DNA of 64,000 nucleotides from an uncultured Gammaproteobacteria bacterium (GCA_964527425.1 CAZGOA010000006.1:13928-77927); one strand, 5' to 3'; positions 5,716 to 64,000 are shown, numbered from the stretch's first letter. Notes: generated by a model not told the origin, from the sequence alone. Made by a program: numbers and translations.

Positions 5716-6114
5716 TTATTCGTGAGTTTTTTCTATTCTAGAGTTTCGTTTAATTGGATCATTAATCGTCCCTGTTAATAAACACAAAGCGTAAAAGGCA
5801 AAAAGGTAGGCTGCATAGAGAATCATTGCATTTGCAGTCATATTAGGAAATATTGATTCCCAATAGATAAAGAGGGGAATTTCTAACAACAGGAATGTCG
5901 GAAATATTCTCCCGGCAAGTATTGTTTGCGTAACGTTGGTTATATGAAGCCGATCATATAACGTGTACGTCACCAGATACACGAGAGGAATTGTTATAAA
6001 AATAAGTATATATAACAGTGGACTATTTAAATTAAAGATAAGATGACCTAAAAGTCTAATGATACTCTGAGACAGAATCCATAATCCTAAACATATTACT
6101 GTAAATTTCATCAT
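5716..6114 (-). CDS. Small polytopic membrane protein, function unknown
   Basis: 132 aa, about four hydrophobic helices. It lies 13 nt upstream of the ABC exporter on the same strand and is probably cotranscribed. No recognisable motif. Confidence 0.4.
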   Translation of the reverse strand: MMKFTVICLGLWILSQSIIRLLGHLIFNLNSPLLYILIFITIPLVYLVTYTLYDRLHITNVTQTILAGRIFPTFLLLEIPLFIYWESIFPNMTANAMILYAAYLFAFYALCLLTGTINDPIKRNSRIEKTHE

Positions 6115-32395: not shown

Positions 32396-32466
32396 GGGCC
32401 GTTAGTACAGTGGTAATACACCGCATTCGCATTGCGGATACGGGAGTTCGATTCTCCCACGGTCCA
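32396..32466 (+). tRNA. tRNA-Ala (anticodon CGC)
   Basis: The cloverleaf was folded by hand. Acceptor stem GGGCCGT/ACGGTCC carries the G3:U70 Ala identity pair. Anticodon stem CCGCA/TGCGG encloses loop TTCGCAT. T-arm GGGAG-TTCGATT-CTCCC. No encoded CCA. Confidence 0.8.
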
Positions 32467-32504
32467 CATAGTTACAGTATTAAGTAACGGATTATTTTGC
32501 AAAC

Positions 32505-32575
32505 GGGCCCGTAGTACACCGGTAGTATAACTCCATGGCATGGAGTAGAAAGGGGTTCGATTCCCCTCGGGTCCA
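32505..32575 (+). tRNA. tRNA-Ala (anticodon GGC)
   Basis: Acceptor stem GGGCCCG/CGGGTCC carries G3:U70. Anticodon stem ACTCC/GGAGT encloses loop ATGGCAT. T-arm AGGGG-TTCGATT-CCCCT. No encoded CCA. Confidence 0.8.
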
Positions 32576-32616
32576 CAACAATTCATGTGTCAGGGTAAAT
32601 TGTATTAAGAGAAGCG

Positions 32617-48201: not shown

Positions 48202-48274
48202 AAAGTAAATATTAGAAAATTTAGGTACAAACAGTGTTGTATAACTCTATATTTTATATTATAGTTTGAGGACT

Positions 48275-49063
48275 ATGAAGACAATTATTTTATGCGGTGG
48301 ATTAGGATATAGATTAAAAGAAGAAACAGAATTTAAACCTAAACCTATGGTTTCTATTGGGAATAAACCGATGTTGTGGCATATTATGAAAATATATGCT
48401 GCGTATGGATTTAATGAGTTTATTATCGCATTAGGTTATAAAGGAGATTGTATAAAGGATTATTTTCTTCAACAGAAATATTTTCTTCATGATTTTACAC
48501 TCAAAACTAAAAGCGGAGTTACAAAAATATATAAAGGGAATGGAAACGCTGCTCGTGTTGATAATTTTTCTATTACGTTTGTAGATACAGGACTCGAGAC
48601 GCTGCCTGGAGAACGTATTCTTCGATGTAGAGAATTTATCCCAAATACAGATGAGCAATTTATGGTTACGTATGGAGATGGAGTATCGACTATTAATATT
48701 AAGAATTTAATTGCATTTCATAATAAGCAAGGTACGATAGGAACAATAACCGGTGTACATCCAAGAACAAAATTTGGAATGGTGAAGGTGAATACTCATG
48801 GTTTAGTAACGAACTTTATTGAAAAACCAGTGTTAAAAAATGATTGGGTAAATGGTGGATTTATGGTTTTTAAAAAAGAGTTTTTTGAGTACTTACGAGT
48901 TGGGGAAATGGAACATGAGGCAATAAAGCGATTAATTGCAAAAAAACAATTATCGTTATTTATTCATGAAGAATTTTGGCATGCTATGGACACCTATGTT
49001 GATGTGGAAAATTTAAATTCCTTATGGTATGCAAACCCACCATGGAAAGTGTGGAGTGACTAA
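48275..49063 (+). CDS. rfbF: Glucose-1-phosphate cytidylyltransferase
   Basis: The N-terminus MKTIILCGGLGYRLKEETEFKPKPMVSIGNKPMLWHIMKIY is the classic RfbF/DdhA signature. The ORF-track start at 48266 is a TTG, so the ATG at 48275 is preferred. Confidence 0.85.
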   Translation: MKTIILCGGLGYRLKEETEFKPKPMVSIGNKPMLWHIMKIYAAYGFNEFIIALGYKGDCIKDYFLQQKYFLHDFTLKTKSGVTKIYKGNGNAARVDNFSITFVDTGLETLPGERILRCREFIPNTDEQFMVTYGDGVSTINIKNLIAFHNKQGTIGTITGVHPRTKFGMVKVNTHGLVTNFIEKPVLKNDWVNGGFMVFKKEFFEYLRVGEMEHEAIKRLIAKKQLSLFIHEEFWHAMDTYVDVENLNSLWYANPPWKVWSD

Positions 49064-49064
49064 T

Positions 49065-50054
49065 ATGAAATCTTATAAACAATCATTTCCATATAAGTCG
49101 GTATTAGTCACTGGAGGAACAGGGTTTGTTGGTAGCCATCTTGTTGAAACCTTAATCGACAAACACATTCAAGTCATTGTTCCATATCGCAGTATTGATT
49201 ATGCTTCATATTTTTATAAAAAAGGATTGGAGAAAAAAGTAACTTTGGTGCCTTGCGATATAAAATCGAGAGAGCAAGTGCTGGATGTAGTTGGTAAGTA
49301 TGAAGTTTCTTTTATTTATCATCTTGCAGCTCAACCAATTGTTACGACTGCATTTTATAATCCTGTAGAAACATTACTTACAAATATTATGGGGACGGTC
49401 TATTTATTGGAAGCAGTCAAAGCACTATCACACGTTAAAGGTATTATTGTCGCTTCTTCTGATAAAGCATATGGAATGACAAAAAAAGAATATACAGAAG
49501 ATTCTCCATTGAGAGGGTTACATCCGTATGATGTTTCAAAATCTTCCTGTGATTTAATTGCACAAACATATGCAACTACGTATGATTTACCAGTAATAGT
49601 AACTAGATTTGGCAATATTTATGGTGAAGGTGACCGAAATATGAACAGAGTGATACCTGGTATTATTCAATCTATGTTGCGAAAAGAAGAGTTTATCATC
49701 AGAAGTGATGGAACATACGTACGGGAATATTTATATGTAAAAGACGTGGTGAATGGGTATATTGCTTTAGCAGAAAAATTTAAAGACGTAGTAGGCGAAG
49801 CGTTCAATTTTGGTACTTCTTACAGACGTTCTGTTATAGAGTTAGTTCATGATGTTGAAAAAATACTTAATGTAAAAGTGCCCTTTAAAATTGCCAATAC
49901 TGCAAAGAAAGAAATTCCATTTCAAGCGCTTAATTGGGATAAAGCAAAAAGCAAGCTTTTATGGAAACCAACTCATACGCTCTCTCAGGTTTTGCCGGCA
50001 ATAGTTGAATGGTACTCACATTACAATTCGTATGAGAATTTTGTTACTAGCTAA
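49065..50054 (+). CDS. rfbG: CDP-glucose 4,6-dehydratase
   Basis: This is an extended SDR. It has VLVTGGTGFVGSHL and the catalytic YDVSK, and it is syntenic with rfbF. The ATG lies 2 nt after the rfbF stop. Confidence 0.8.
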   Translation: MKSYKQSFPYKSVLVTGGTGFVGSHLVETLIDKHIQVIVPYRSIDYASYFYKKGLEKKVTLVPCDIKSREQVLDVVGKYEVSFIYHLAAQPIVTTAFYNPVETLLTNIMGTVYLLEAVKALSHVKGIIVASSDKAYGMTKKEYTEDSPLRGLHPYDVSKSSCDLIAQTYATTYDLPVIVTRFGNIYGEGDRNMNRVIPGIIQSMLRKEEFIIRSDGTYVREYLYVKDVVNGYIALAEKFKDVVGEAFNFGTSYRRSVIELVHDVEKILNVKVPFKIANTAKKEIPFQALNWDKAKSKLLWKPTHTLSQVLPAIVEWYSHYNSYENFVTS

Positions 50055-51471
50055 TAATTGGGTGGGGTGGGAGATAACAAAATTTCTTTCATCAGACACA
50101 GATGTTGATATTGTTGGACTTGGAATTCACGCACCTTCTAAACAAAAATATACCAAGTATATTCTTCAATCAGTTAATTTACCAAAGTCGAAAATTTTAT
50201 TAGGATCTACATTTAAACAATCAACAACCATTGAACGTATCAGACGATTAAAACCAGATCTAATAATCAGCGCATTTTGGGGGTATATCTTAACAAAAGA
50301 TATTATTGCTATTCCGACCAAAGGAAGTATCAACTTTCATCCAGGATATCTACCAACCAATCGAGGAATGAACCCTAATGTATGGCCGTTTATTGATAAC
50401 ACTCCCGCAGGAGTAACTATTCATTATGTTGATGAAGGTATTGATACAGGAGACATTATTGCTAGACGGAAAGTTCCTATTACTCCTTACGATACAGCAG
50501 AATCAATATATGAAAAAACAATGGCGGATATTGTTGAATTGTTTAAAGAAATATGGCCGAACATAAAAAAAGGCACTGCTCCTCGTATAAATCAGAAAAC
50601 ATTACCAGAAATATCAACGCATCATTATGCTCAAGATATTGAGTCTATTAATACTATAGATGTAGATAAAACGTATACTGGTCAACAACTTATCAATTTA
50701 CTTAAAGCAAGAAGTTATCAGGACAAGTTATTTTTATCCTATACGGATAAAGGTGATCAAGTATACCTTAGTGTACAGTTATACTCTCCAAAAAAATTAC
50801 CGGTCAATACCAAATCTGAGTATCAAAAGTATGTAGAGTATGCGTTAAAGTCATATAAAGAACCATATAGACCGTTAATAATTTCAGTACAAAATAACTT
50901 AAAAATTAAGTTAAAGCCATTTACAAGAAAAGATATAGATGATGAACAACTCGTTCAGATACTAACTAGATGGAGAAAAAAAGCCCAACCATTTTTCCCA
51001 AGTACATTTCGTGTAACCAATGAGAGGACAAAAAAATGGCTCCAATCAGAACTAATAAATAAAAACGATAGAATACTCTTTCTAATTTACTTGCAAGATC
51101 GAAAAACTCCCTTAGGACATGTTGGACTGTATCGATTTGAATGGGATTCATATTCGTGTCAAATCGATAATGTCATAAAAGGTATCAACAGGAAAGAAAC
51201 TAAAGGTATTATGACAATGGCAATACATGAATTAGGTGAATGGGCATTGAATCATCTTGGTGTTCGTACTTTAACATTATATGTCTTTGAAGATAATGAA
51301 AAAGCAGTCAATTTATATACACGCTGCGGATTCATTATAAAAAAAAGAATTCCTCAGCGATTTGAAAAACTAAACAGTCAGGAATTTCACTGGGTCAATG
51401 ATGATCGAATTTCGATAATGAAACCTGAGAGAGTATTGTTGTATATGGTCAAATATCTTTCTAAGGGATAG
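50030..51471 (+). CDS. Fusion protein: formyltransferase domain (ArnA-N/Fmt-like) and C-terminal GNAT acetyltransferase
   Basis: The N-terminal ~200 aa carry the formyl_trans_N core (HPGYLPTNRGMNPNVWPFID...GVTIHYVDEGIDTGDII). The C-terminal ~170 aa have a GNAT fold with the acetyl-CoA motif (GHVGLY...ETKGIMTMAI...LYTRCGF). Confidence 0.7.
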
Positions 51472-53641
51472 TCGTTTCATACAAACTAAAATCATAATCT
51501 GATTTTACTAATTTGCTGTATGGTTGTAATTTGGACCATAGTGCAGGATATGCATGTTTTGTTTCCCAATACGGAGAATAAAATTCTTTTTCATTGATAA
51601 ATACATAAAACGTTGAACCTCTTGCTATCTGTAAAGCATCTTCAATTTGTTCTTCACTAACGATTAAACTGCGTATGAAGGTATACGGTAAAGCTGGTTT
51701 TAAATGCAAGGCTGCGATTAAATCAATACTATTATCAAACAACACTATCTTAGAATTTTTAGGAATACTTGATAAGAAAACATATTGTTCTGATTGTTTT
51801 ACATCCCATTGTTTTAATCTGGTATGCATAATTGCAAAAATTTCTGATGTTGTATGGATAGGATTTTTCCAATATTCAACAATTAATAAGCCATTTCTAA
51901 AGGTTGCCAGCAACAGAATAAATCCGAATATGTATGTTACAACTCTGGGTAATATATGCTTATCCTTATACTGGTTTTCAATTATGTGTACTACCATCGT
52001 CATAAGTAGAATAGTAGGAATTAAGATACTGTAGAGCAGAGGAGGGAGTGATCGGCCAAGATAATAAGGAAGCAACGATAACTGTGTAAATGATACATAT
52101 AGTAATCCAATACCAATTTTATGTTGTTTGCTCATTAAATGGAGTCCCAGTACAATACTGATGACAGAAACTATAAAGGGAATAAGCATCATACCCTGTT
52201 TATCTACAGGAACTAAATAAAACCCAGAACTAAATATTTTTATGAACTCATAATACAGAGAAAAATCAGGGAACGTTTGTTTGGTTATGAGAGTAAGAAG
52301 TACAATACTAAATATTGAACCAACTAATGATGTAAGTGTAACTACACTTACTAATCGGAATAATGCAGTTTTTTTACTACTAAAAAATATTGCATAGATA
52401 CATATGCTTGCCAGTCCTGATACTGCTATACCAATACCGATTTCGAATGAAAAAAAGAACATAAGGACACTAGCAATAATAAATAAAATGAGAGGTAACT
52501 TTTTAGAATTGTGTATATAAGAAGCAAGAAAATAGAAAGGAAAAATCATAGGACCTAAACGCAGAGGAGTAAAAGCTGGTGCACCAATCAGTGACCATTG
52601 ATCTTCAAAATAAAAAGACCTATTTATTAGCGTATAGTAAACAGCTGTAAAAGTTCCAAGTGCAGAGAGAATATTGTTTTTTGTGATTTTTTTTAAAGTA
52701 ATGTAAAAAAATACATAATATACAAATAAAAATAATAAGGTAACCATTGATGTAAATTCTCTTGAAAGTGGGAGAAAAGGGAATGCTTTTATCCATATCA
52801 GCCAAGGCAATAAATAGATGATTCCGTATTGGCTAATAACATCTACAAATGGTGTGGCACCGGTAATAATATGATATGCAGGCAGAGTCGTAAAAAATAA
52901 ATCACCATAATATCTATCCAGAGTAAGAAATGGTAATAATACTAATACAAGAATGATTATTGTTGCGAATGTGATTATAGGATTAATAAATTTTATTGAA
53001 CGTATGTACTCGAATACCTGTTTTATAGCAGGTTTTATTCCCAACAAAAGGGGTAATACTATAAAAAGATAACTATACTGCATTATGATCTTATCAGGTA
53101 AAATTATGGCTGAAGAATCAATCGTTGGTGGAGAAAAGAGATACACCCCCGCATCTAATTCCAGGAAACCTGGAATAAAATATTTGGCAACCGAAGCGAT
53201 GAATAATAGCTGGGTAGTTTGAGCACTAAATGGTTTTTGTAAGATAAATAATTGAAACACAAGCACTATCATAAACAGGAGATAAAAGCGCATATCAGTT
53301 GCCAGTTGCAGTGGAAAAGGATAATCACCTACAACAAGTAATCCAATAAAGGTGCTCGGGAGAATATACATTGATATTTTTTCTAGAAGAACTCTATTTT
53401 CTGAAGTTGTGAACAAGTAAAGCAGTAATTGAGAAACAAGAATAAATAACGCGACAAGAATAATAAAACAAATATAAAAAAGTACATCTTTTTCTGGTGC
53501 AAAATGTCCGTCTATTAATAACGCGTAGGCTGGTTCTGTAGGAAGGGGAATACGAGAAATAATCAGTGGAGTTAGTATTGAAGAAAAGAAAGACGAAAGA
53601 ACAAACTGCAACGATAAAATAGGTAGAGCAAATAAATTCAT
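51461..53641 (-). CDS. Large polytopic membrane protein (GT-C-like candidate)
   Basis: 726 aa with more than 14 TM helices and a C-terminal ~150-aa soluble domain. No named motif. Confidence 0.4.
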   Translation of the reverse strand: MNLFALPILSLQFVLSSFFSSILTPLIISRIPLPTEPAYALLIDGHFAPEKDVLFYICFIILVALFILVSQLLLYLFTTSENRVLLEKISMYILPSTFIGLLVVGDYPFPLQLATDMRFYLLFMIVLVFQLFILQKPFSAQTTQLLFIASVAKYFIPGFLELDAGVYLFSPPTIDSSAIILPDKIIMQYSYLFIVLPLLLGIKPAIKQVFEYIRSIKFINPIITFATIIILVLVLLPFLTLDRYYGDLFFTTLPAYHIITGATPFVDVISQYGIIYLLPWLIWIKAFPFLPLSREFTSMVTLLFLFVYYVFFYITLKKITKNNILSALGTFTAVYYTLINRSFYFEDQWSLIGAPAFTPLRLGPMIFPFYFLASYIHNSKKLPLILFIIASVLMFFFSFEIGIGIAVSGLASICIYAIFFSSKKTALFRLVSVVTLTSLVGSIFSIVLLTLITKQTFPDFSLYYEFIKIFSSGFYLVPVDKQGMMLIPFIVSVISIVLGLHLMSKQHKIGIGLLYVSFTQLSLLPYYLGRSLPPLLYSILIPTILLMTMVVHIIENQYKDKHILPRVVTYIFGFILLLATFRNGLLIVEYWKNPIHTTSEIFAIMHTRLKQWDVKQSEQYVFLSSIPKNSKIVLFDNSIDLIAALHLKPALPYTFIRSLIVSEEQIEDALQIARGSTFYVFINEKEFYSPYWETKHAYPALWSKLQPYSKLVKSDYDFSLYETTIP

Positions 53642-57016: not shown

Positions 57017-57547
57017 TTATTTTGTTTTGGGAAAAAGAATGAAAATTGATAATTGAATGAGTCTTCTGATTTTAAACATGAATGGTATTGTATTAAGGAT
57101 GTAGTCGTTTTTATCCTTTAAAAGAGCATGTTGAGTTTCCAATCTGTTGAGCCGCCGATTAATGATGACTTCTTTGTTATAGAGTTTCTGAAGATTATGT
57201 ACAGTTATTCCTTTTTTATGTTGAGCTATTAATGATAATAATTTAATCGTAATAGATGATTCAGTATAGCTATAGAACGTAAGTAAATAAAACGCTAATA
57301 CGATTAAGTTAATACATAATGAAACACTTGCATAAAACAGTATATTTATCAACGGATATTGAAGTACAACTAAGGTTAATCCAATTAGTAGACAATTCAA
57401 TATTGCGATGAGTATCGCACAAAGTACCAACCAATAATATGATGTCAGTTTATTCGTATATTTCAAAATGAATCGTTGTAAACACAGAAATAAAACACAT
57501 GATACTAAAGTAGTGCTGATTAGAATGATATCCATGTTATCCACCAA
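57017..57547 (-). CDS. Membrane protein with N-terminal TM helices and a C-terminal winged-helix-like domain, paralog A
   Basis: 176 aa. Three or four TM helices are followed by ITVHNLQKLYNKEVIINRRLNRLETQHALLKDKNDYIL, an apparent MarR/PadR-like wHTH. Confidence 0.45.
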   Translation of the reverse strand: MVDNMDIILISTTLVSCVLFLCLQRFILKYTNKLTSYYWLVLCAILIAILNCLLIGLTLVVLQYPLINILFYASVSLCINLIVLAFYLLTFYSYTESSITIKLLSLIAQHKKGITVHNLQKLYNKEVIINRRLNRLETQHALLKDKNDYILNTIPFMFKIRRLIQLSIFILFPKTK

Positions 57548-58046
57548 TAGATAATCCTAAACTTTTACTTATAGAGTAAAAAATGTCCCATATTGTATTA
57601 CCACGCTTGCTAAGTCTATACGTATTGACGTTGGATTTTATTATTATGTTTTTTGACTCCAGACTATCAAGTCGTTTAGTTATTAATAAATCATTAGAAA
57701 AGAGGGAGAAAATATCTTTTTTCGAGAGTATTTTTTTATGTAAAAATGCATCAAAAAGTGTATCAATAGGAGTTTGTCCTTCCTGAAATTGAAAAAAAGA
57801 ATACAGAGTAACAATACTAGATAGTAGTATAAAAAGCATTAAAGAGGTTACAGGAAGCGGAGAGGTATCTGTATGTATTAGTTGATAGTTCGTTGCGTAG
57901 AGAACAACTAATAGTAAAAATGAGACAATAGTAACGAATATACTAACCACAAACGGTTTTACTTGTTTAGAGCATACGCGATAAATAACACTTTGGAGAA
58001 TAAGCGAATTAATAAACATGAGCATGAATAACAGAACTTCATTCAT
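57537..58046 (-). CDS. Membrane protein with N-terminal TM helices and a C-terminal winged-helix-like domain, paralog B
   Basis: 169 aa. Three TM helices are followed by ILSKKDIFSLFSNDLLITKRLDSLESKNIIIKSNVNTYRLSKRG. The gene overlaps paralog A by 11 nt. Confidence 0.45.
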   Translation of the reverse strand: MNEVLLFMLMFINSLILQSVIYRVCSKQVKPFVVSIFVTIVSFLLLVVLYATNYQLIHTDTSPLPVTSLMLFILLSSIVTLYSFFQFQEGQTPIDTLFDAFLHKKILSKKDIFSLFSNDLLITKRLDSLESKNIIIKSNVNTYRLSKRGNTIWDIFYSISKSLGLSIGG

Positions 58047-58071: not shown

Positions 58072-59376
58072 TTAGACCTTTTGGGATTTCATAAACGAGT
58101 GAATTGTATTGACAACATACGAACGCATCGTATTTGTTATACCGGGATATACTCCAATCCAAAACCCATCATTCATGATGCGGTCAGTATTGGTTAATGC
58201 TCCGACGACACGATACTGTTGGTGTTTCATAAATGCAGGATGTTTAAGTAAATTTCCCGCAAACAATCGTCTTGTTGCTATATGGTTTTTTTCAAGAAAG
58301 TCAATTAAATCATTACTTGTAAACGGTGCGGTAGGGGATACTAGTATCATAAAACCAAACCAACTTGGAACTGCCTCATTAAGATGTTTGGTGAAGTTTA
58401 GTAGTGGTTCATACTGTTGTAAATGTTTTTTATAGAATGCAAATGTCTCGTTTCTTCTTTTGATAAAATCTGGAAGTTTTTGAAGTTGAGCTAAGCCTAT
58501 TGCCGCCTGCATATCTGTTAATTTTAGATTATATCCAATTTGTGAATATATGTATTTATGATCATATCCATACGGTAGATTGCCTAATTTCCAGTCAAAT
58601 CTCCGGTTACAGGTATTATCTTTTCCTGTTTTGCACCAGCAGTCTCTGCCCCAATCTCTGAATTGTCTTACGCTTCTGGATACTAAAGAATTATTTGTTA
58701 CGACTGCACCACCTTCTCCCATAGTCATTTGGTGTGCCGGGTAAAATGAATATGTTGCAACATGACCAAATGTGCCTACTGGTTTACCTTGATAGGTTGC
58801 TCCTAATGCATCACAACAATCTTCTACTAACCATAAATTATGCTCTTTACACAAAGAGACTAGTTCTTTAAGCGGCATAGGATTTCCTAAAGCATGCGCC
58901 ATCATTATTGCCTTAGTTTTTGGGCTAATAGCTTTTCGTAGATTTTCTATTGAGACATTCTTTGTGTTTAAATCTACGTCAACAAATACTGGTATAAGTC
59001 TATTTTGGATAATGGGATTAACTGTCGTTGGAAATGACGCAGCAAGTGTAATAACTTCATCACCTGGTTTGAGCGCTTTATCGCCAAACACATCTGATGT
59101 AAGAGCTGATAACGCCAAGAGGTTTGCAGATGAACCAGAATTTGTTAATGATACTAATTTGCATCCACAAATCTTTGAAAATTCACGTTCAAACTGTTGT
59201 GCAAATGCTCCTTCTGTCCACCAACCATCTAAAACAGCTTGTGTGGCATTCATAATTTCTTCATGATCGAAAATCTTTCCAGAGACAGGTACGGTAGATG
59301 ATCCGGCAATAAAACGAGATGGCTTATGATTTTTTTTATAGTATGACGTAATGGATGATGACAATGTTTTGTTCAT
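58072..59376 (-). CDS. rfbH: CDP-4-dehydro-6-deoxyglucose 3-dehydrase (E1; RfbH/DdhC-like). A PMP-dependent DegT-family enzyme.
   Basis: 434 aa. Near-colinear conservation with RfbH as I remember it: FIAGSSTVPVSGK...LDGWWTEG...NSGSSANLLALSALTS...ALKPGDEVITLAASFPTTVNPIIQNRLIPVFVDVD...EDCCDALGATY...FRDWGRDCWCKTGKDNTCNRRF (Cys cluster)...TDRIMNDGFWIGVYPG. Confidence 0.8.
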   Translation of the reverse strand: MNKTLSSSITSYYKKNHKPSRFIAGSSTVPVSGKIFDHEEIMNATQAVLDGWWTEGAFAQQFEREFSKICGCKLVSLTNSGSSANLLALSALTSDVFGDKALKPGDEVITLAASFPTTVNPIIQNRLIPVFVDVDLNTKNVSIENLRKAISPKTKAIMMAHALGNPMPLKELVSLCKEHNLWLVEDCCDALGATYQGKPVGTFGHVATYSFYPAHQMTMGEGGAVVTNNSLVSRSVRQFRDWGRDCWCKTGKDNTCNRRFDWKLGNLPYGYDHKYIYSQIGYNLKLTDMQAAIGLAQLQKLPDFIKRRNETFAFYKKHLQQYEPLLNFTKHLNEAVPSWFGFMILVSPTAPFTSNDLIDFLEKNHIATRRLFAGNLLKHPAFMKHQQYRVVGALTNTDRIMNDGFWIGVYPGITNTMRSYVVNTIHSFMKSQKV

Positions 59377-60338
59377 AGCATTGAATGCTCAGGTTTTTTG
59401 TCGAGATTAATAGTTTGCTTAATAATAAATCTTGGCCGGGCCTTTACTTCTAAAAAAATTTTAGCCAGATATTCTGCAATGACACTTAAGCTTAATAGCT
59501 GTACACCACCCAAAAACAGCGTTGCTATTAAAACTGTCGGTACACCAGGTGCACGTTGGTTAAAAACTAGTACCAAGAGTAAATTAAGAATAATAAATAA
59601 TATTGACATGATAGTAACAGAAAACCCTAAATAAGAAATCCATAGTAACGGTTGAAACGAGAAGTTTAAGATAATTTGTTTTGCCCACCATAATCCTTTA
59701 AAAAAACTCTCTGTTGATTGACCATGTATACGTGCTTGGCGGACATAGGGTATGCCTATTTGTTTAAATCCAACAAACGCTCTTAAACAGCGGACGAAAT
59801 AATCGTATTCCGGTATCCGTAATAATTCTTTTACAACCTGTTTGCTCATTAACGAGAATTCTCCAGCATCAAGGGGAACAGAAATGTATGCTAGTTTCTT
59901 AAGTAGGTAATAAAACGTTTTATAAGAAAGATTCCAAAAAAATCCATAGCCATCTCTTTTCGTTCTAATTCCGTACACTACATCATATCCAGCTTTCCAG
60001 GTTTGAATAAATGTAGGGATTATCTCAGGTGGATCTTGAATATCACCATGTAATAATACAACTGCATCGCCTGAAGCGTACGTCATACCCGCTAAAAAAC
60101 TTGGTTGAGGAGATCCAAAATTTCGACTCATTTTAATTACTTTAACTCGTTTGTCTTTTTTTGTTAATTTTGTGTAGATTGAATCTGAGTTATCGGTAGA
60201 ATCATTGTCAACAAAAATAATTTCTGGAGAATAATTTTTTAACTTTTTAAATATATTCACAATTCTTGAATACATTTCTTGAATATTCTCTTGTTCGTTG
60301 TAGCAGGTGATTACAATTGATAGTATTTCTCGTTTCAT
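59373..60338 (-). CDS. GT2 polyprenyl-phosphate glycosyltransferase with C-terminal TM helices (ArnC/GtrB-like)
   Basis: 321 aa. The N-terminal GT-A has SIVITCYNEQENI...IIFVDNDSTDNS. Two C-terminal TM helices are present. The size and topology are identical to ArnC-type lipid-linked sugar synthases. Confidence 0.75.
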   Translation of the reverse strand: MKREILSIVITCYNEQENIQEMYSRIVNIFKKLKNYSPEIIFVDNDSTDNSDSIYTKLTKKDKRVKVIKMSRNFGSPQPSFLAGMTYASGDAVVLLHGDIQDPPEIIPTFIQTWKAGYDVVYGIRTKRDGYGFFWNLSYKTFYYLLKKLAYISVPLDAGEFSLMSKQVVKELLRIPEYDYFVRCLRAFVGFKQIGIPYVRQARIHGQSTESFFKGLWWAKQIILNFSFQPLLWISYLGFSVTIMSILFIILNLLLVLVFNQRAPGVPTVLIATLFLGGVQLLSLSVIAEYLAKIFLEVKARPRFIIKQTINLDKKPEHSML

Positions 60339-61456
60339 GACCGTACTTTTAAGACCCGTCGTATCATTCTTGCAATATAATCTACTTCTTTTTCTTTTAA
60401 CATAACTCCACTTGGTAAATTTATACTGGAATACGAAACAGTATGAGCTTGAGGAGTCGGTATATGAGGAGTTTTATATAATTTGAAATCACTAATAGGA
60501 TAAAAAAATGCCCGGGTATCAATGAGTAAGTCTTTTAACTGCTTTCTCATCATGTCTCTATCGATGTGTAATGATTTATCTACTGTAATTGAAGTCATCC
60601 AAAAACTACTTGATACACCTTTTCGTTCAGGATTAAGACTTAATCCTTCAATACCATCCAGTCGCTCTTTATACCACGTATAAATTTTTTTCTTCCTCGC
60701 GATGAGATCATCAATATCTTCCAGTCTTGAAAGTCCCAGTGCTGCCTGAATATTAGACATCGGATACATATATCCTATGTCATTTATCCAAAATTGTCTT
60801 TGTAAATCAACGCCATGATCTACTAATGATAATGCTTTTTGGTACCAGTCTTTACGATTGGTAACAAACATGCCACCTTCCCCTATAGCCAACATTTTTG
60901 CTCCCTGGAAACTAAAGGCAGCACAATCGCCAATTGAACCTAATTGTTTACCATTTAAGGTGCTACCTAACCCTTCGCATGCGTCTTCTATGACGATTAA
61001 GTTGTGTTTTTTTGCAATGGTTAATATGCCATCCATATCTGCAACATTGCCGTATAAATGAACTGGCATGATTGCTTTTGTCTTTTTAGTAATATATGTT
61101 TCTACTTTGCTTACATCGATACTCCAGGTTTCTTTGTCAATATCAACCAGTACTGGTGTTGCTCCGCAATAATGTACTGCATTTGAACAGGCAACATACG
61201 TCATATCGGGTACGATAACTTCATCTCCAGGTTGAAGACCTGCCAGGACACATCCTAAATGCAGAGCAGAAGTACCAGTGGATACCGCTAGAGCATATTT
61301 AACGCCTAAATATTCTGCGAATTGTTTTTCGAATTTAGCGATATAGTCACTGTGATGAGTATTCCATCCATTTTTGGCCGCATCTTTTACATAAGCAAGA
61401 TCATGCGGAGAAATTTTGGGGCCAGCGGTTAGGATTAGCTTTTTAGGTGAAAACAT
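60335..61456 (-). CDS. DegT/DnrJ/EryC1/StrS-family PLP-dependent sugar aminotransferase
   Basis: 373 aa with the characteristic AVSTGTSALHL...PGDEVIVPDMTYVA...DACEGLGS...FSFQGAKMLAIGEGGMFVTN. Confidence 0.8.
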   Translation of the reverse strand: MFSPKKLILTAGPKISPHDLAYVKDAAKNGWNTHHSDYIAKFEKQFAEYLGVKYALAVSTGTSALHLGCVLAGLQPGDEVIVPDMTYVACSNAVHYCGATPVLVDIDKETWSIDVSKVETYITKKTKAIMPVHLYGNVADMDGILTIAKKHNLIVIEDACEGLGSTLNGKQLGSIGDCAAFSFQGAKMLAIGEGGMFVTNRKDWYQKALSLVDHGVDLQRQFWINDIGYMYPMSNIQAALGLSRLEDIDDLIARKKKIYTWYKERLDGIEGLSLNPERKGVSSSFWMTSITVDKSLHIDRDMMRKQLKDLLIDTRAFFYPISDFKLYKTPHIPTPQAHTVSYSSINLPSGVMLKEKEVDYIARMIRRVLKVRS

Positions 61457-61465
61457 ATAAGAATA

Positions 61466-62401
61466 TTAGTGTTTTTTTTGTAATACTTCAATTCTGTTTT
61501 TAATAGCATTACAAATAGAATTTACAGAAAGATGATTCACTTCTCGCATATATTCTTGAGGACCAATTGTTTTTGTAAATCTATCTGGTATACCAAAACG
61601 CAACACAGGAATTTGAATTGCGTTATCTGCTAAAGTTTCTAATACTGCGCTTCCTAGTCCTCCAATGATACTATGCTCTTCAAGTGTGACGAGGAGAGGA
61701 GTTTTAGCGGCAGCTTTCTTTATTGCTTCATTATCAAGTGGTTTAATCGTATGCATACTTATGAGTTGTGCATGTATATTTGTTGTTAATAATTGTTGTC
61801 TGACAAGATGTCCTGTTTCCAGCATCGTTGATGTTGCAATGATTGTTACGTCTTTACCTTCAGCCATTGATATTGCTTTTCCAATAGAAACGGTTTGATT
61901 TGATGAATGGAGTATAGGTTCTCCTTTTTTACCAATTCGAAGATATGTTGGTTGTGGATTGGTAAACAGCTGTTTGGTCAGTGCTTTTACTTCATGGGGA
62001 TCACCGGGTGCTAGAATTCTTAAGTTTGGAATGGTTCGTAGCATTCCTATATCCTCAAGAGCATGGTGTGTATGTCCGTAAGGTCCATATGAAAACCCAG
62101 CTCCAACCCCTACAATAGTAACTGGTAGATGTTGGTAACAAATATCATTACGAATTTGTTCAATATTGCGAATAGTAATAAAAGGAATGATGGAATAAAT
62201 AACAGGCAGGTAACCCTCACTTGCAAGTCCAGCTGCTATTCCTGTCATTGATTGTTCGATCATGCCACAGTTTATGTACTGATTTGGACATGCTTCTATT
62301 AAAGGCTCAAACACAGAAAACCCCAAATCTCCGGTTAAAAGAATTAAGCGTTTATCAGTTTTTGCTAATTCTAAGAATGTATTTGCAAACGTATTTCTCA
62401 T
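61466..62401 (-). CDS. Transketolase, C-terminal section (split TK)
   Basis: 311 aa. Pyrimidine-binding and C-terminal domains are present (GDLGFSV...MIEQSMTGIAAGLASEGYLPV...). It overlaps the N-terminal section by 4 nt. Confidence 0.8.
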   Translation of the reverse strand: MRNTFANTFLELAKTDKRLILLTGDLGFSVFEPLIEACPNQYINCGMIEQSMTGIAAGLASEGYLPVIYSIIPFITIRNIEQIRNDICYQHLPVTIVGVGAGFSYGPYGHTHHALEDIGMLRTIPNLRILAPGDPHEVKALTKQLFTNPQPTYLRIGKKGEPILHSSNQTVSIGKAISMAEGKDVTIIATSTMLETGHLVRQQLLTTNIHAQLISMHTIKPLDNEAIKKAAAKTPLLVTLEEHSIIGGLGSAVLETLADNAIQIPVLRFGIPDRFTKTIGPQEYMREVNHLSVNSICNAIKNRIEVLQKKH

Positions 62402-63207
62402 AGTTTTTTTAGTAAATCAGTATATTCTTTTTCTGTTGGAGCTTTGTATTGTGAAGAAATTTGATTAATATGCTGAGGAACACCGCCTTTTCCTTTGATG
62501 GTTTTTGCTCGGATGACAGTTGGTTTATCCATTGTATGTTGAAAACTTCTGTATGCTTTTTCTAATTGAGCATACGAATGTCCGTTAACTGTGATAACGT
62601 TGCAACCGAAGCTTTTCAGTTTAGATGATAATGGATATGTGTTAAGAACGTCTTTTGTATATCCAAATCCTTGAAGCTTATTTTCGTCAATAATGACGAG
62701 TAAATTATCAAGTTTGTGGTGTGCTGCAAACAGGAAAGATTCCCAAGTGGTTCCTTCATTTAATTCTCCGTCGGAAATAATCACAATGGTTTTCCAATGT
62801 TGTTTTTTACGTTTTGCTGCGAGTGCAATACCTACAGCTAATGGCAGTCCATGTCCTAATGAACCCGAACTGTAATCTATTCCAGGAAGAGATCCTCTAA
62901 TAGGATGACCAGCTAACAATCCATTTTGTTGTTCATATCCCTTAAAGAGTTCTAACGGGAAATATCCTCTTCTTGCCAGTACTGCATACAGCGCTTTTGC
63001 ATCATGTCCTTTGGAGAAAACTACTCTATCTCTGGTTGGCATGTCGGGTTTTTGAGGGTTAATATCGAGAAGCTTAAAATAGAGAGAAACAAGTATTTCC
63101 ACACAAGATAAAGCTCCACCAGCATGTGCACTTTGGGCTGTAAAACTCATGGTAAGAATATCGTGGCGGATATGTTTTGAGATGTCTTCTAAATTTTTTA
63201 CGTTCAT
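62398..63207 (-). CDS. Transketolase, N-terminal TPP-binding section (split TK)
   Basis: 269 aa with GHPIRGSLPGIDYSSGSLGHGLPLAVGIALA and the TPP motif ISDGELNEG. Confidence 0.8.
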   Translation of the reverse strand: MNVKNLEDISKHIRHDILTMSFTAQSAHAGGALSCVEILVSLYFKLLDINPQKPDMPTRDRVVFSKGHDAKALYAVLARRGYFPLELFKGYEQQNGLLAGHPIRGSLPGIDYSSGSLGHGLPLAVGIALAAKRKKQHWKTIVIISDGELNEGTTWESFLFAAHHKLDNLLVIIDENKLQGFGYTKDVLNTYPLSSKLKSFGCNVITVNGHSYAQLEKAYRSFQHTMDKPTVIRAKTIKGKGGVPQHINQISSQYKAPTEKEYTDLLKKL

Positions 63208-63301: not shown

Positions 63302-64000
63302 TTATCGCACGATGTTTAGTAGTGTATCGACAACCATTTGAACTTCTTTTTTTGTTATCGCTGTGAAAACAGGCAGGCATACTGTTTCTTCTGAGGCAAG
63401 TTCTGTGTTGGGGAGTGATAAGGTTTTATACATACGTCTATATGGAGGTTGTAAATGAGCGGAGGGTATGCCTTGACGAATAACGATTCCGTTATCCAGC
63501 ATCTTTTGCATGACACGATTTCTTTTCCCTTTATACCCTTTTAACCGTACCTGGTAGGTCTGAAAGGTGTGGTGATATCCGTTGGGAACATAGGGTGGAG
63601 TAATAACGGGGTGATTGTCAAATGCCTGTGTGTACTGTTTTGCTACTTCCTGTCGTTTTTTCATGATGATATCGAGTTTATGAAATTGAGTTATGCCGAG
63701 TGCTGCATGGATATCACTCATACGGTAATTAAACCCTACAACGGGAAATTCTTCCGGAATGATTGTTTTGCTGGCATTGCGTGTTGCAACGGATACATTT
63801 GCTCCATGTGCTCTCATAATCGAAGCCAAATCTGCCCATTGTTTATTACGTGTTACTACTAAACCACCTTCTGCTGTCGTAATTGCTTTTCTGGGATGGA
63901 ATGAAAAAACGCCTATGTCTCCAAATGTGCCAGCATGTTTCTGTTTATACGTACTGCCGAATCCACATGCTGCATCTTCTAAAATGAGTAATTTGTGCTT
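63302..64000 (-). CDS. DegT-family sugar aminotransferase/dehydratase (partial; the 5' part continues beyond the window end)
   Basis: The frame is open all the way to position 64000. It translates as ...LILEDAACGFGSTYKQKHAGTFGDIGVFSFHPRKAITTAEGGLVVTRNKQWADLASIMRAHG...FNYRMSDIHAALGITQ. The ORF-track start at 63829 is an internal TTG. Confidence 0.75.
   Translation of the reverse strand, partial: KHKLLILEDAACGFGSTYKQKHAGTFGDIGVFSFHPRKAITTAEGGLVVTRNKQWADLASIMRAHGANVSVATRNASKTIIPEEFPVVGFNYRMSDIHAALGITQFHKLDIIMKKRQEVAKQYTQAFDNHPVITPPYVPNGYHHTFQTYQVRLKGYKGKRNRVMQKMLDNGIVIRQGIPSAHLQPPYRRMYKTLSLPNTELASEETVCLPVFTAITKKEVQMVVDTLLNIVR

Follow-up and report, generated by a model that had tools for sequence, protein, structure and literature searches.

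How polyprenyl-phosphate monosaccharides cross the membrane bilayer is poorly understood, and the roles of the small proteins GtrA and ArnE/ArnF in this passage have been assigned mainly by genetics. Two small genes, here called gene A and gene B, raise the question in a new setting. They close a sugar operon in a 64,000-nt stretch of DNA (hereafter the window) deposited under an uncultured Gammaproteobacteria bacterium (GCA_964527425.1, CAZGOA010000006.1:13928-77927). What kind of proteins do they encode, and what might these proteins do beside enzymes that assemble lipid-linked sugars? We are highly confident that A and B belong to a new, conserved and obligately paired family, in which three transmembrane (TM) helices are joined to a winged-helix domain and which resides in GtrB-type lipid-carrier glycosylation modules of the candidate phyla radiation (CPR).

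A family of paired three-helix membrane proteins

The initial annotation described two overlapping genes of 169 and 176 aa encoding tandem, membrane-anchored paralogues. Both open reading frames (ORFs) were found as such on the minus strand (Table 1), and their kinship is borne out by BLASTP (E=1e-6, 29% identity over the C-terminal 87 aa) as well as by a single family hidden Markov model (HMM) matching both products (1.4e-42 for B and 7.8e-21 for A). The overlap between the genes is probably not real, since, relative to the TTG from which the 176 codons of the window gene are counted, the starts called for gene B orthologues are shifted downstream by one codon (GTG, 175 aa) or by four (ATG, 172 aa), and a Shine-Dalgarno-like GGTGGA is found 5 nt upstream of the ATG at 57535. 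This ATG, which is separated by a single base from the TAA stop of gene A, is the likely start of gene B, and the two genes would thus be tightly coupled instead of overlapping. Around them, a promoter and terminator scan found no terminator, and promoter-like sites did not exceed the shuffle expectation. Genes A and B are genuine and not chance ORFs, as indicated by a dN of ~0.32 with saturated dS for each of them in comparison with the homologous locus L002, by the 236 family representatives described below and by the quality of the AlphaFold2 model of B (pLDDT 93.4, pTM 0.78; 132-sequence family alignment).

Near-identical copies of the pair are present in public assemblies (L001, L005-L008), and pairs 58-59% identical to that of the window in the loci L002-L004. 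In these last three, which come from related samples, gene A contains a 14-bp tandem duplication (GTTTCTTTATCTTA twice in succession; L002:9602-9629, also L003:9602 and L004:1119) that frameshifts it into ORFs of 57 and 99 aa, with gene B intact. Deleting one copy in silico returns a 168-aa gene A orthologue, and the frameshift is either a recent inactivation or a population variant.

An exhaustive HMMER search of 1.84 billion proteins with a profile of both paralogues recovered 236 cluster representatives at E<=1e-3 (19 at E<=1e-10), nearly all of them 150-197 aa long (about 170) and matched end to end. Word-indexed homologue searches yielded 2 clusters per gene, or 5 with the 132-sequence profile, and a metagenome scan with alignment A4 yielded one locus; a scan of GTDB genomes with A/B-derived patterns, which were too specific, found none, and tblastn of one family member against plasmids and phages gave no match. 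Neither protein matches a Pfam family (up to E<=10) or an NCBIfam family, and PDB sequence searches with full-length and C-terminal profiles returned nothing significant. In particular, GtrA (PF04138) was not matched by A or B at E<=10, by 132 family members at E<=0.1 or by seven A-type proteins at E<=1; no Pfam or NCBIfam match to SMR/EamA or ArnEF was obtained for A, B and the 132 members, and DUF2304 (the family of GacJ) was not among the Pfam matches of A, B, the 132 members or the seven A-type proteins. As no account of such a family was found in the literature either, A and B represent a new family without prior description.

The family is under-annotated in public records: the A-type gene of one member locus (L098:7497-7997; NCBI assembly GCA_001779035.1, MFIZ01000009.1) is missing from the gene table of its metagenome-assembled genome (MAG), in which no gene is entered between 5331 and 8001. 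The stretch in question holds masked or N bases. As for the host of the window itself, its Rho protein is closest to those of Patescibacteria/Microgenomates MAGs (best match 80% identical, with many matches in Gottesmanbacteria and Levyibacteriota) and the G+C content is 35%; judging from these sequence affinities, it is a Microgenomates-type CPR bacterium.

Hydropathy and AlphaFold2 agree on three TM helices in A and B alike, so that of the "three or four" originally suggested the lower number stands and the higher does not. In A, the helices span residues ~4-22, ~31-52 and ~65-85 by hydropathy and 2-26, 31-57 and 64-104 in the model; in B, the modelled helices span 2-30, 33-61 and 66-97. Because loop 1 and the C-terminal part of both proteins are enriched in positive charges, we predict a topology with the N-terminus outside and the C-terminus inside. 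The membrane domain of B has conserved residues at D6, Q/H24 (polar), R29 and Y87 (numbered on 176 aa), and the conserved polar residues group at the predicted cytoplasmic interface of the membrane. A topology of this kind is shared with the SemiSWEETs, dimerising three-TM units that are likewise oriented N-out/C-in. Identity with the SemiSWEET/PQ-loop family was nevertheless rejected: its sole trace, an MtN3_slv match at E=0.71 in one A-type protein, is noise, TM1 carries Q/H and no Pro-Gln motif, and no SemiSWEET appears among the best 50 Foldseek PDB matches of the B model.

The C-terminal part measures ~80 aa, somewhat more than the ~70 aa first estimated, and consists of a winged-helix unit of ~57 aa and a helix of ~20 aa. 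In the model of B, helices 99-109, 116-122 and 125-138 are followed by a two-strand hairpin (142-145 and 148-151), that is, by three helices and a wing in the order typical of winged helices, and then by a hydrophobic, aromatic-rich final helix (156-171). The model of A, built from six sequences only, is of low confidence (pLDDT 62) and already contains three long helices followed by strand-helix-helix-strand-strand-helix (strand 106-108, helices 109-115 and 119-131, strands 135-137 and 142-145, helix 147-162). Alignment columns of the B family show R132 conserved at 99%, R135 at 96% and S98 at 89%.

A winged helix-turn-helix (wHTH) domain of the MarR/PadR type had been proposed. The helix-helix-helix-wing order of this proposal holds in the models and agrees with in-register matches to wHTH-clan families, all rated sub-threshold as evidence; membership does not hold, as no match to MarR, PadR or ArsR reaches threshold. 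The Pfam traces comprise B-block_TFIIIC (in 11 of 132 members), EutK_C (2.1e-6 at best, in one member), HTH_45 (E ~0.01), Rpc34, the O-methyltransferase dimerisation domain and DUF1803, with HTH_45 and HVO_A0261_N in A-type orthologues. Profile matches to PDB entries 2lvs (E=0.038) and MarR 3bpv (E ~1) are in register with the domain, as is an hhalign alignment to a MarR sequence (P=0.006, probability 6%). In these alignments, the MarR HTH coincides with the domain in its third helix (pattern 'RL..L...G.I') and in its two-strand wing. Unlike MarR, however, A and B have no MarR-type dimerisation helices. In the model of B, the first wHTH helix joins TM3 without a linker; because of this, and of the hydrophobic helix behind the wing, the domain is expected to be held at the membrane.

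Order of the pair and its gene neighbours

When all ORFs were scanned with the family HMM, an A-type gene directly preceding a co-oriented B-type gene was observed in 10/10 distinct loci in which both genes are visible (the window group, the L002 group, L089, L090, L091 (L091/92), L095, L096, L097, L098 and L099), with -8 to +25 nt between the two. Two further short contigs (L093, L094) contain A-type C-terminal tails upstream of B. The orthologues keep the C-terminal tail. With the order fixed and the coupling tight, A and B may well form a stoichiometric heterodimer.

The two types are readily told apart, and the A-type features are kept in L089, L090, L091 and L095-L099. TM1 carries H-x-x-x-H-R in the A-type and a polar Q/H with F-R in the B-type; the A-type has P-x-P before TM3, whereas the B-type has Y87 within it. 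After TM3 the A-type reads (Q/E/D)-T-P ('GQTP' in window gene A) and the B-type E-S-S-I-(T/R)-x-(K/R)-L-L. The third wHTH helix is 'K-R-L-x-x-L-E' with a net charge of -3 to +1 in the A-type, as against 'R-R-L-x-R-L' and +1 to +6 in the B-type, whose whole domain is basic (mean net charge +5). At the C-terminus the A-type usually ends in G-G, as does the last helix of window gene A, and the B-type in F-P.

In the window, the pair comes last in a minus-strand operon with the order split transketolase, DegT aminotransferase, glycosyltransferase of family 2 (GT2), RfbH, A, B, and this operon faces two convergent genes for large membrane proteins. The Arn/Gtr-like context claimed in the initial annotation is confirmed by the GT2, which can be aligned end to end with GtrB (5ekp, E=1.3e-62) and ArnC (E=2.7e-34), has hydrophobic C-terminal segments and shows below-cutoff NCBIfam similarity to the PgfS and ArnC models; given these full-length alignments it is, by homology, a polyprenyl-phosphate glycosyltransferase. 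The RfbH-type enzyme directly upstream of gene A scores 660.8 bits against an equivalog cutoff of 423. Of the convergent pair, the 534-aa protein matches PMT_2 (GT-C; 9.7e-11) and the 533-aa protein no family, and both are presumed to be extracytoplasmic users of the lipid-linked sugar. PMT_2 also matches a 575-aa protein elsewhere in the window.

A combination of GT2, small membrane protein and GT-C enzyme is what has been termed three-component glycosylation (reviewed in PMC8035078). The window holds a GtrB/ArnC-type GT2 and GT-C transferases, and according to a hydropathy screen A and B are the sole unassigned small membrane ORFs of the cluster. The only other small polytopic ORF that this screen retrieved, a 132-aa, four-TM ORF at 5716-6114 on the minus strand, lies 50 kb from A/B beside an ABC exporter; it was considered as a GtrA and rejected, as it belongs to DUF5367 (E=1.1e-11).

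Co-occurrence of the pair with an ArnC-like GT2, which the initial annotation proposed to look for in related genomes, was indeed found. The clearest case is L090, where a GT2 73% identical to that of the window, A, B and a 534-aa polytopic membrane protein stand back to back on one strand, a gene content which by analogy amounts to a three-component glycosylation system in which A-B takes the place of the small membrane protein. In L089, an A-B-GT2 array (GT2 67% identical) is inserted in otherwise housekeeping surroundings of purine, pyrG and ribosomal genes. A GT2 orthologue 62% identical lies three genes from the pair in L097 and a GT2 40% identical one gene from it in L098, while the GT2 adjoining the pair in L096 is short (228 aa) and not orthologous to the 321-aa enzyme. 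No GT2 was seen in the available flanks of L091 and L099; both contigs are short, and this absence is therefore uninformative. Proteins that are GT-C-like, or large, polytopic and unassigned, directly flank A-B in the window, L090, L091, L097 and L098. The position of the pair within glycan gene runs varies, with close spacing to the neighbours in most loci. Across loci, the biosynthetic (nucleotide-sugar) enzymes change, and what recurs is the A-B pair, the GtrB-type GT2 and the GT-C-like or large polytopic neighbours. Over one and the same set of loci, the GT2 is 62-73% identical, as against about 25-35% for A or B. No gene in any locus table and no scanned protein of the window matches GtrA, SMR or Wzx, nor was ArnEF seen in the A-B loci.

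A putative role in handling lipid-linked sugars

The type of system is known; its small-protein component is here an unannotated family of an architecture that is unprecedented for that slot. One known occupant is GtrA (of gtrABC, also GtcA/CflA; Pfam GtrA_DPMS_TM), which is thought to be dimeric and to move polyprenyl-phosphate monosaccharides outward (PMC8035078). Like GtrA, A and B are small membrane proteins whose genes neighbour those of a GtrB-type GT2 and a GT-C enzyme. They differ from it in being diverged paralogues that occur as an obligate heteropair, in having three N-out TM helices instead of four and in a cytoplasmic winged-helix tail of 80 aa, which is absent from GtrA; the sequence match is missing in all 132 members searched. 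ArnE/ArnF, the heterodimeric SMR-like flippase of undecaprenyl-phosphate-L-Ara4N encoded in arnBCADTEF, resembles A-B in being a tandem of small paralogous membrane proteins within an operon. The set of enzymes around that tandem also has its counterpart in the window (DegT-type aminotransferase, ArnC-type GT2, formyltransferase, PMT_2/GT-C). A and B differ from it in having no SMR/EamA match, three TM helices against four and an additional cytoplasmic domain, and the sugar pathway of the window is of the RfbH type and probably linked to cytidine diphosphate (CDP).

We tentatively propose, by analogy and with rather less than even confidence, that A and B do the work of GtrA or ArnE/F: as a heterodimer, they would take charge of the polyprenyl-phosphate sugar that the GT2 produces and would help to translocate it. 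The GT2 would load the sugar onto polyprenyl phosphate at the cytoplasmic face; A and B, as a six-TM heterodimer in the slot held elsewhere by GtrA or ArnE/ArnF, would receive the product at the inner leaflet and help it across; and GT-C enzymes would consume it outside the cell. Contact with the lipid-linked sugar would be made through a polar cluster comprising Q/H24, R29, E96-S-S98, R132 and R135 of B together with the H-x-x-x-H-R and T-P motifs of A, and the winged helix would act as a docking or gating domain apposed to the membrane and not as a free DNA-binding regulator. We favour this proposal because the slot is occupied by the pair, no other candidate lies nearby, the pairing is ArnE/F-like and a conserved cluster of polar and charged residues is found at the predicted cytoplasmic interface of the membrane. 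A more specific version is conceivable, although we regard it as doubtful in full: in CPR bacteria, GtrA/ArnEF would be replaced by A-B as a heterodimeric (3+3 TM) translocase of polyprenyl-phosphate sugars belonging to a new class, and the winged helices of A-B would lie flat on the membrane, dock on the GtrB-type synthase and gate the hand-over.

Several observations weigh against a translocase. No likeness in sequence or fold to any known flippase or transporter was detected in Pfam, NCBIfam, the PDB, Foldseek or a comparison with EmrE: the TM-domain profile retrieved nothing from the PDB, a Foldseek comparison of the B model with PDB structures gave no match below E=1 (the best ones being generic three-TM subunits and wHTH-containing proteins), and hhalign of the TM profile against an EmrE sequence was null (probability 0.2%). 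Each subunit has fewer TM helices than GtrA or ArnE/F. To our knowledge, a winged-helix domain is without precedent in flippases of lipid-linked sugars. The assignment is made from position and by elimination, and a flippase could lie elsewhere in the genome. Since gene A is frameshifted in the L002-L004 lineage, it may be dispensable there. Finally, a DPMS enzyme has been proposed to be able to flip its own glycolipid product (PMC12992685).

The chief alternative, which we consider unlikely, is an auxiliary or activating role for A and B as subunits of the GT2, in the style of GacJ with GacI or of DPM2/DPM3 with DPM1. The pair would then serve to anchor the synthase, to set its orientation, to stimulate it or to supply it with polyprenyl phosphate; the wHTH would be docked on the cytoplasmic catalytic domain, and translocation would be left to something else. 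GacJ (DUF2304) is itself a small three-TM protein encoded beside the polyprenyl-phosphate GT2 GacI, which it stimulates (PMC8035078), and A and B resemble it in size, helix number and genomic company. The tight linkage of the pair to a GT2 in L089, L090 and L096, the GacI-like size of the L096 enzyme and the prediction that the wHTH and the GT2 catalytic domain share one side of the membrane all fit such a role. However, GacJ is the product of a single gene, has no winged helix and belongs to a family that A and B do not match, and the window GT2, being alignable with GtrB and ArnC over its full length, has its own membrane region with TM helices. The far higher conservation of the GT2 than of A and B would be unusual for a tight obligate complex. 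We know of no requirement of GtrB/ArnC-type enzymes for small subunits.

Besides a heterodimeric small flippase with a soluble tail, the initial annotation had offered a different possibility, that of membrane-tethered transcription regulators sensing lipid-linked intermediates. In such a one-component design, the TM part would sense a lipid-linked intermediate or the state of the envelope and the wHTH would bind glycan-operon DNA. Proteins such as ToxR/CadC, BcrR and RodZ show that an HTH can be joined to TM helices; the wHTH order of A and B, the sub-threshold traces of DNA-binding families (HTH_45, MarR 3bpv, EutK_C), the predicted cytoplasmic location and the basic B-type domain with near-invariant R132 and R135 in its third helix are all compatible with DNA binding. 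Against this, the domain comes after the TM helices with no linker in between and is clamped to the membrane, unlike in MarR/PadR/ArsR and the tethered HTH proteins; the third helix of the A-type is neutral to acidic; regulator families are not matched at threshold; and the genes lie within glycan runs and not at the divergent promoters typical of regulators, with L098 as a possible exception. Regulation appears slightly less likely to us than an accessory role, and the evidence leans towards the handling of lipid-linked sugars and away from a classical regulator.

Winged helices often make protein-protein contacts, and the neighbours of the pair vary and include nucleotide-sugar enzymes and GT-C-like proteins, with the GT2 missing from the flanks of L091 and L099; yet another envelope role, as a scaffold for soluble nucleotide-sugar enzymes (RfbH, aminotransferases, formyltransferase) or as an acceptor or specificity adaptor for the GT-C neighbours, is equally improbable, as the contigs of L091 and L099 are too short to be informative and the nucleotide-sugar enzymes change between loci while A-B stays.

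A-B adds an unannotated conserved component to the little-known envelope biology of CPR/Patescibacteria, and would exemplify the winged helix as a membrane-apposed module. For the transbilayer passage of lipid-linked sugars, it is a concrete candidate: an obligate pair in minimal GT2/GT-C modules with no recognisable flippase nearby. Were A-B a translocase with docking winged helices, it would provide the first winged-helix domain in lipid-carrier flipping; were it a tethered regulator instead, it would be a rare case of dedicated transcription control in reduced genomes.

Further features of the window

Table 1. Coordinates of the genes and domains discussed, counted from the first nucleotide of the window
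Feature	Coordinates	Strand	Basis
Gene A, A-type subunit	57537..58046	-	ORF, ATG start, 169 aa
Gene A membrane domain, residues ~1-88	57783..58046	-	Hydropathy and positive-inside charges; AlphaFold2 helices
Gene A winged-helix-like domain and C-terminal helix, residues ~89-169	57540..57782	-	AlphaFold2 order; Pfam traces in orthologues
Gene B, B-type subunit	57017..57547	-	ORF, 176 aa counted from the first TTG at 57547
Gene B membrane domain, three long TM helices	57263..57535	-	AlphaFold2 helices; column conservation
Gene B cytoplasmic part: E96-S-S98 junction, wHTH, C-terminal helix	57020..57262	-	AlphaFold2; conservation
RfbH-type pyridoxal-phosphate enzyme, 434 aa, directly upstream of gene A	58072..59376	-	NCBIfam; Pfam DegT_DnrJ_EryC1
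GtrB/ArnC-type polyprenyl-phosphate GT2, 321 aa	59373..60338	-	PDB and NCBIfam similarity
Two convergent polytopic proteins, 534 aa and 533 aa	53730..56939	+	Pfam PMT_2 on the 534-aa protein

The sugar-forming enzymes of the window are encoded at 48266-51471 and 58072-63207 and comprise RfbH, two more DegT aminotransferases, the split transketolase, a nucleotidyltransferase, a 4,6-dehydratase-like enzyme and a 488-aa formyltransferase-GNAT fusion. Such a complement suggests an amino sugar of an unusual kind, dideoxy or branched and bearing an N-formyl or N-acyl group. The DegT ORF at 63302..63829, which had looked truncated, simply continues past the end of the window.

Between 32873 and 56939 there are at least nine large polytopic ORFs (839, 638, 575, 599, 474, 544, 531, 726, 534 and 533 aa), three of which give a Pfam signal (PMT_2 twice, and a weak GT87 match together with an NPCBM domain). 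One 534-aa protein of L090 is matched by two of them, those of 533 aa (27% identity) and 531 aa (36%), and the array is probably a large, divergent set of GT-C enzymes. Its 726-aa ORF (51461-53641, minus strand) is represented by two genes (337 and 362 aa) in the near-identical locus L005 (13904-16083) and in L006 and L007, suggesting either a variant (frameshift or stop) or a difference between the assemblies. At 32396-32576 on the plus strand there is a tandem of two tRNA-Ala genes with the anticodons CGC and GGC, 38 nt apart.

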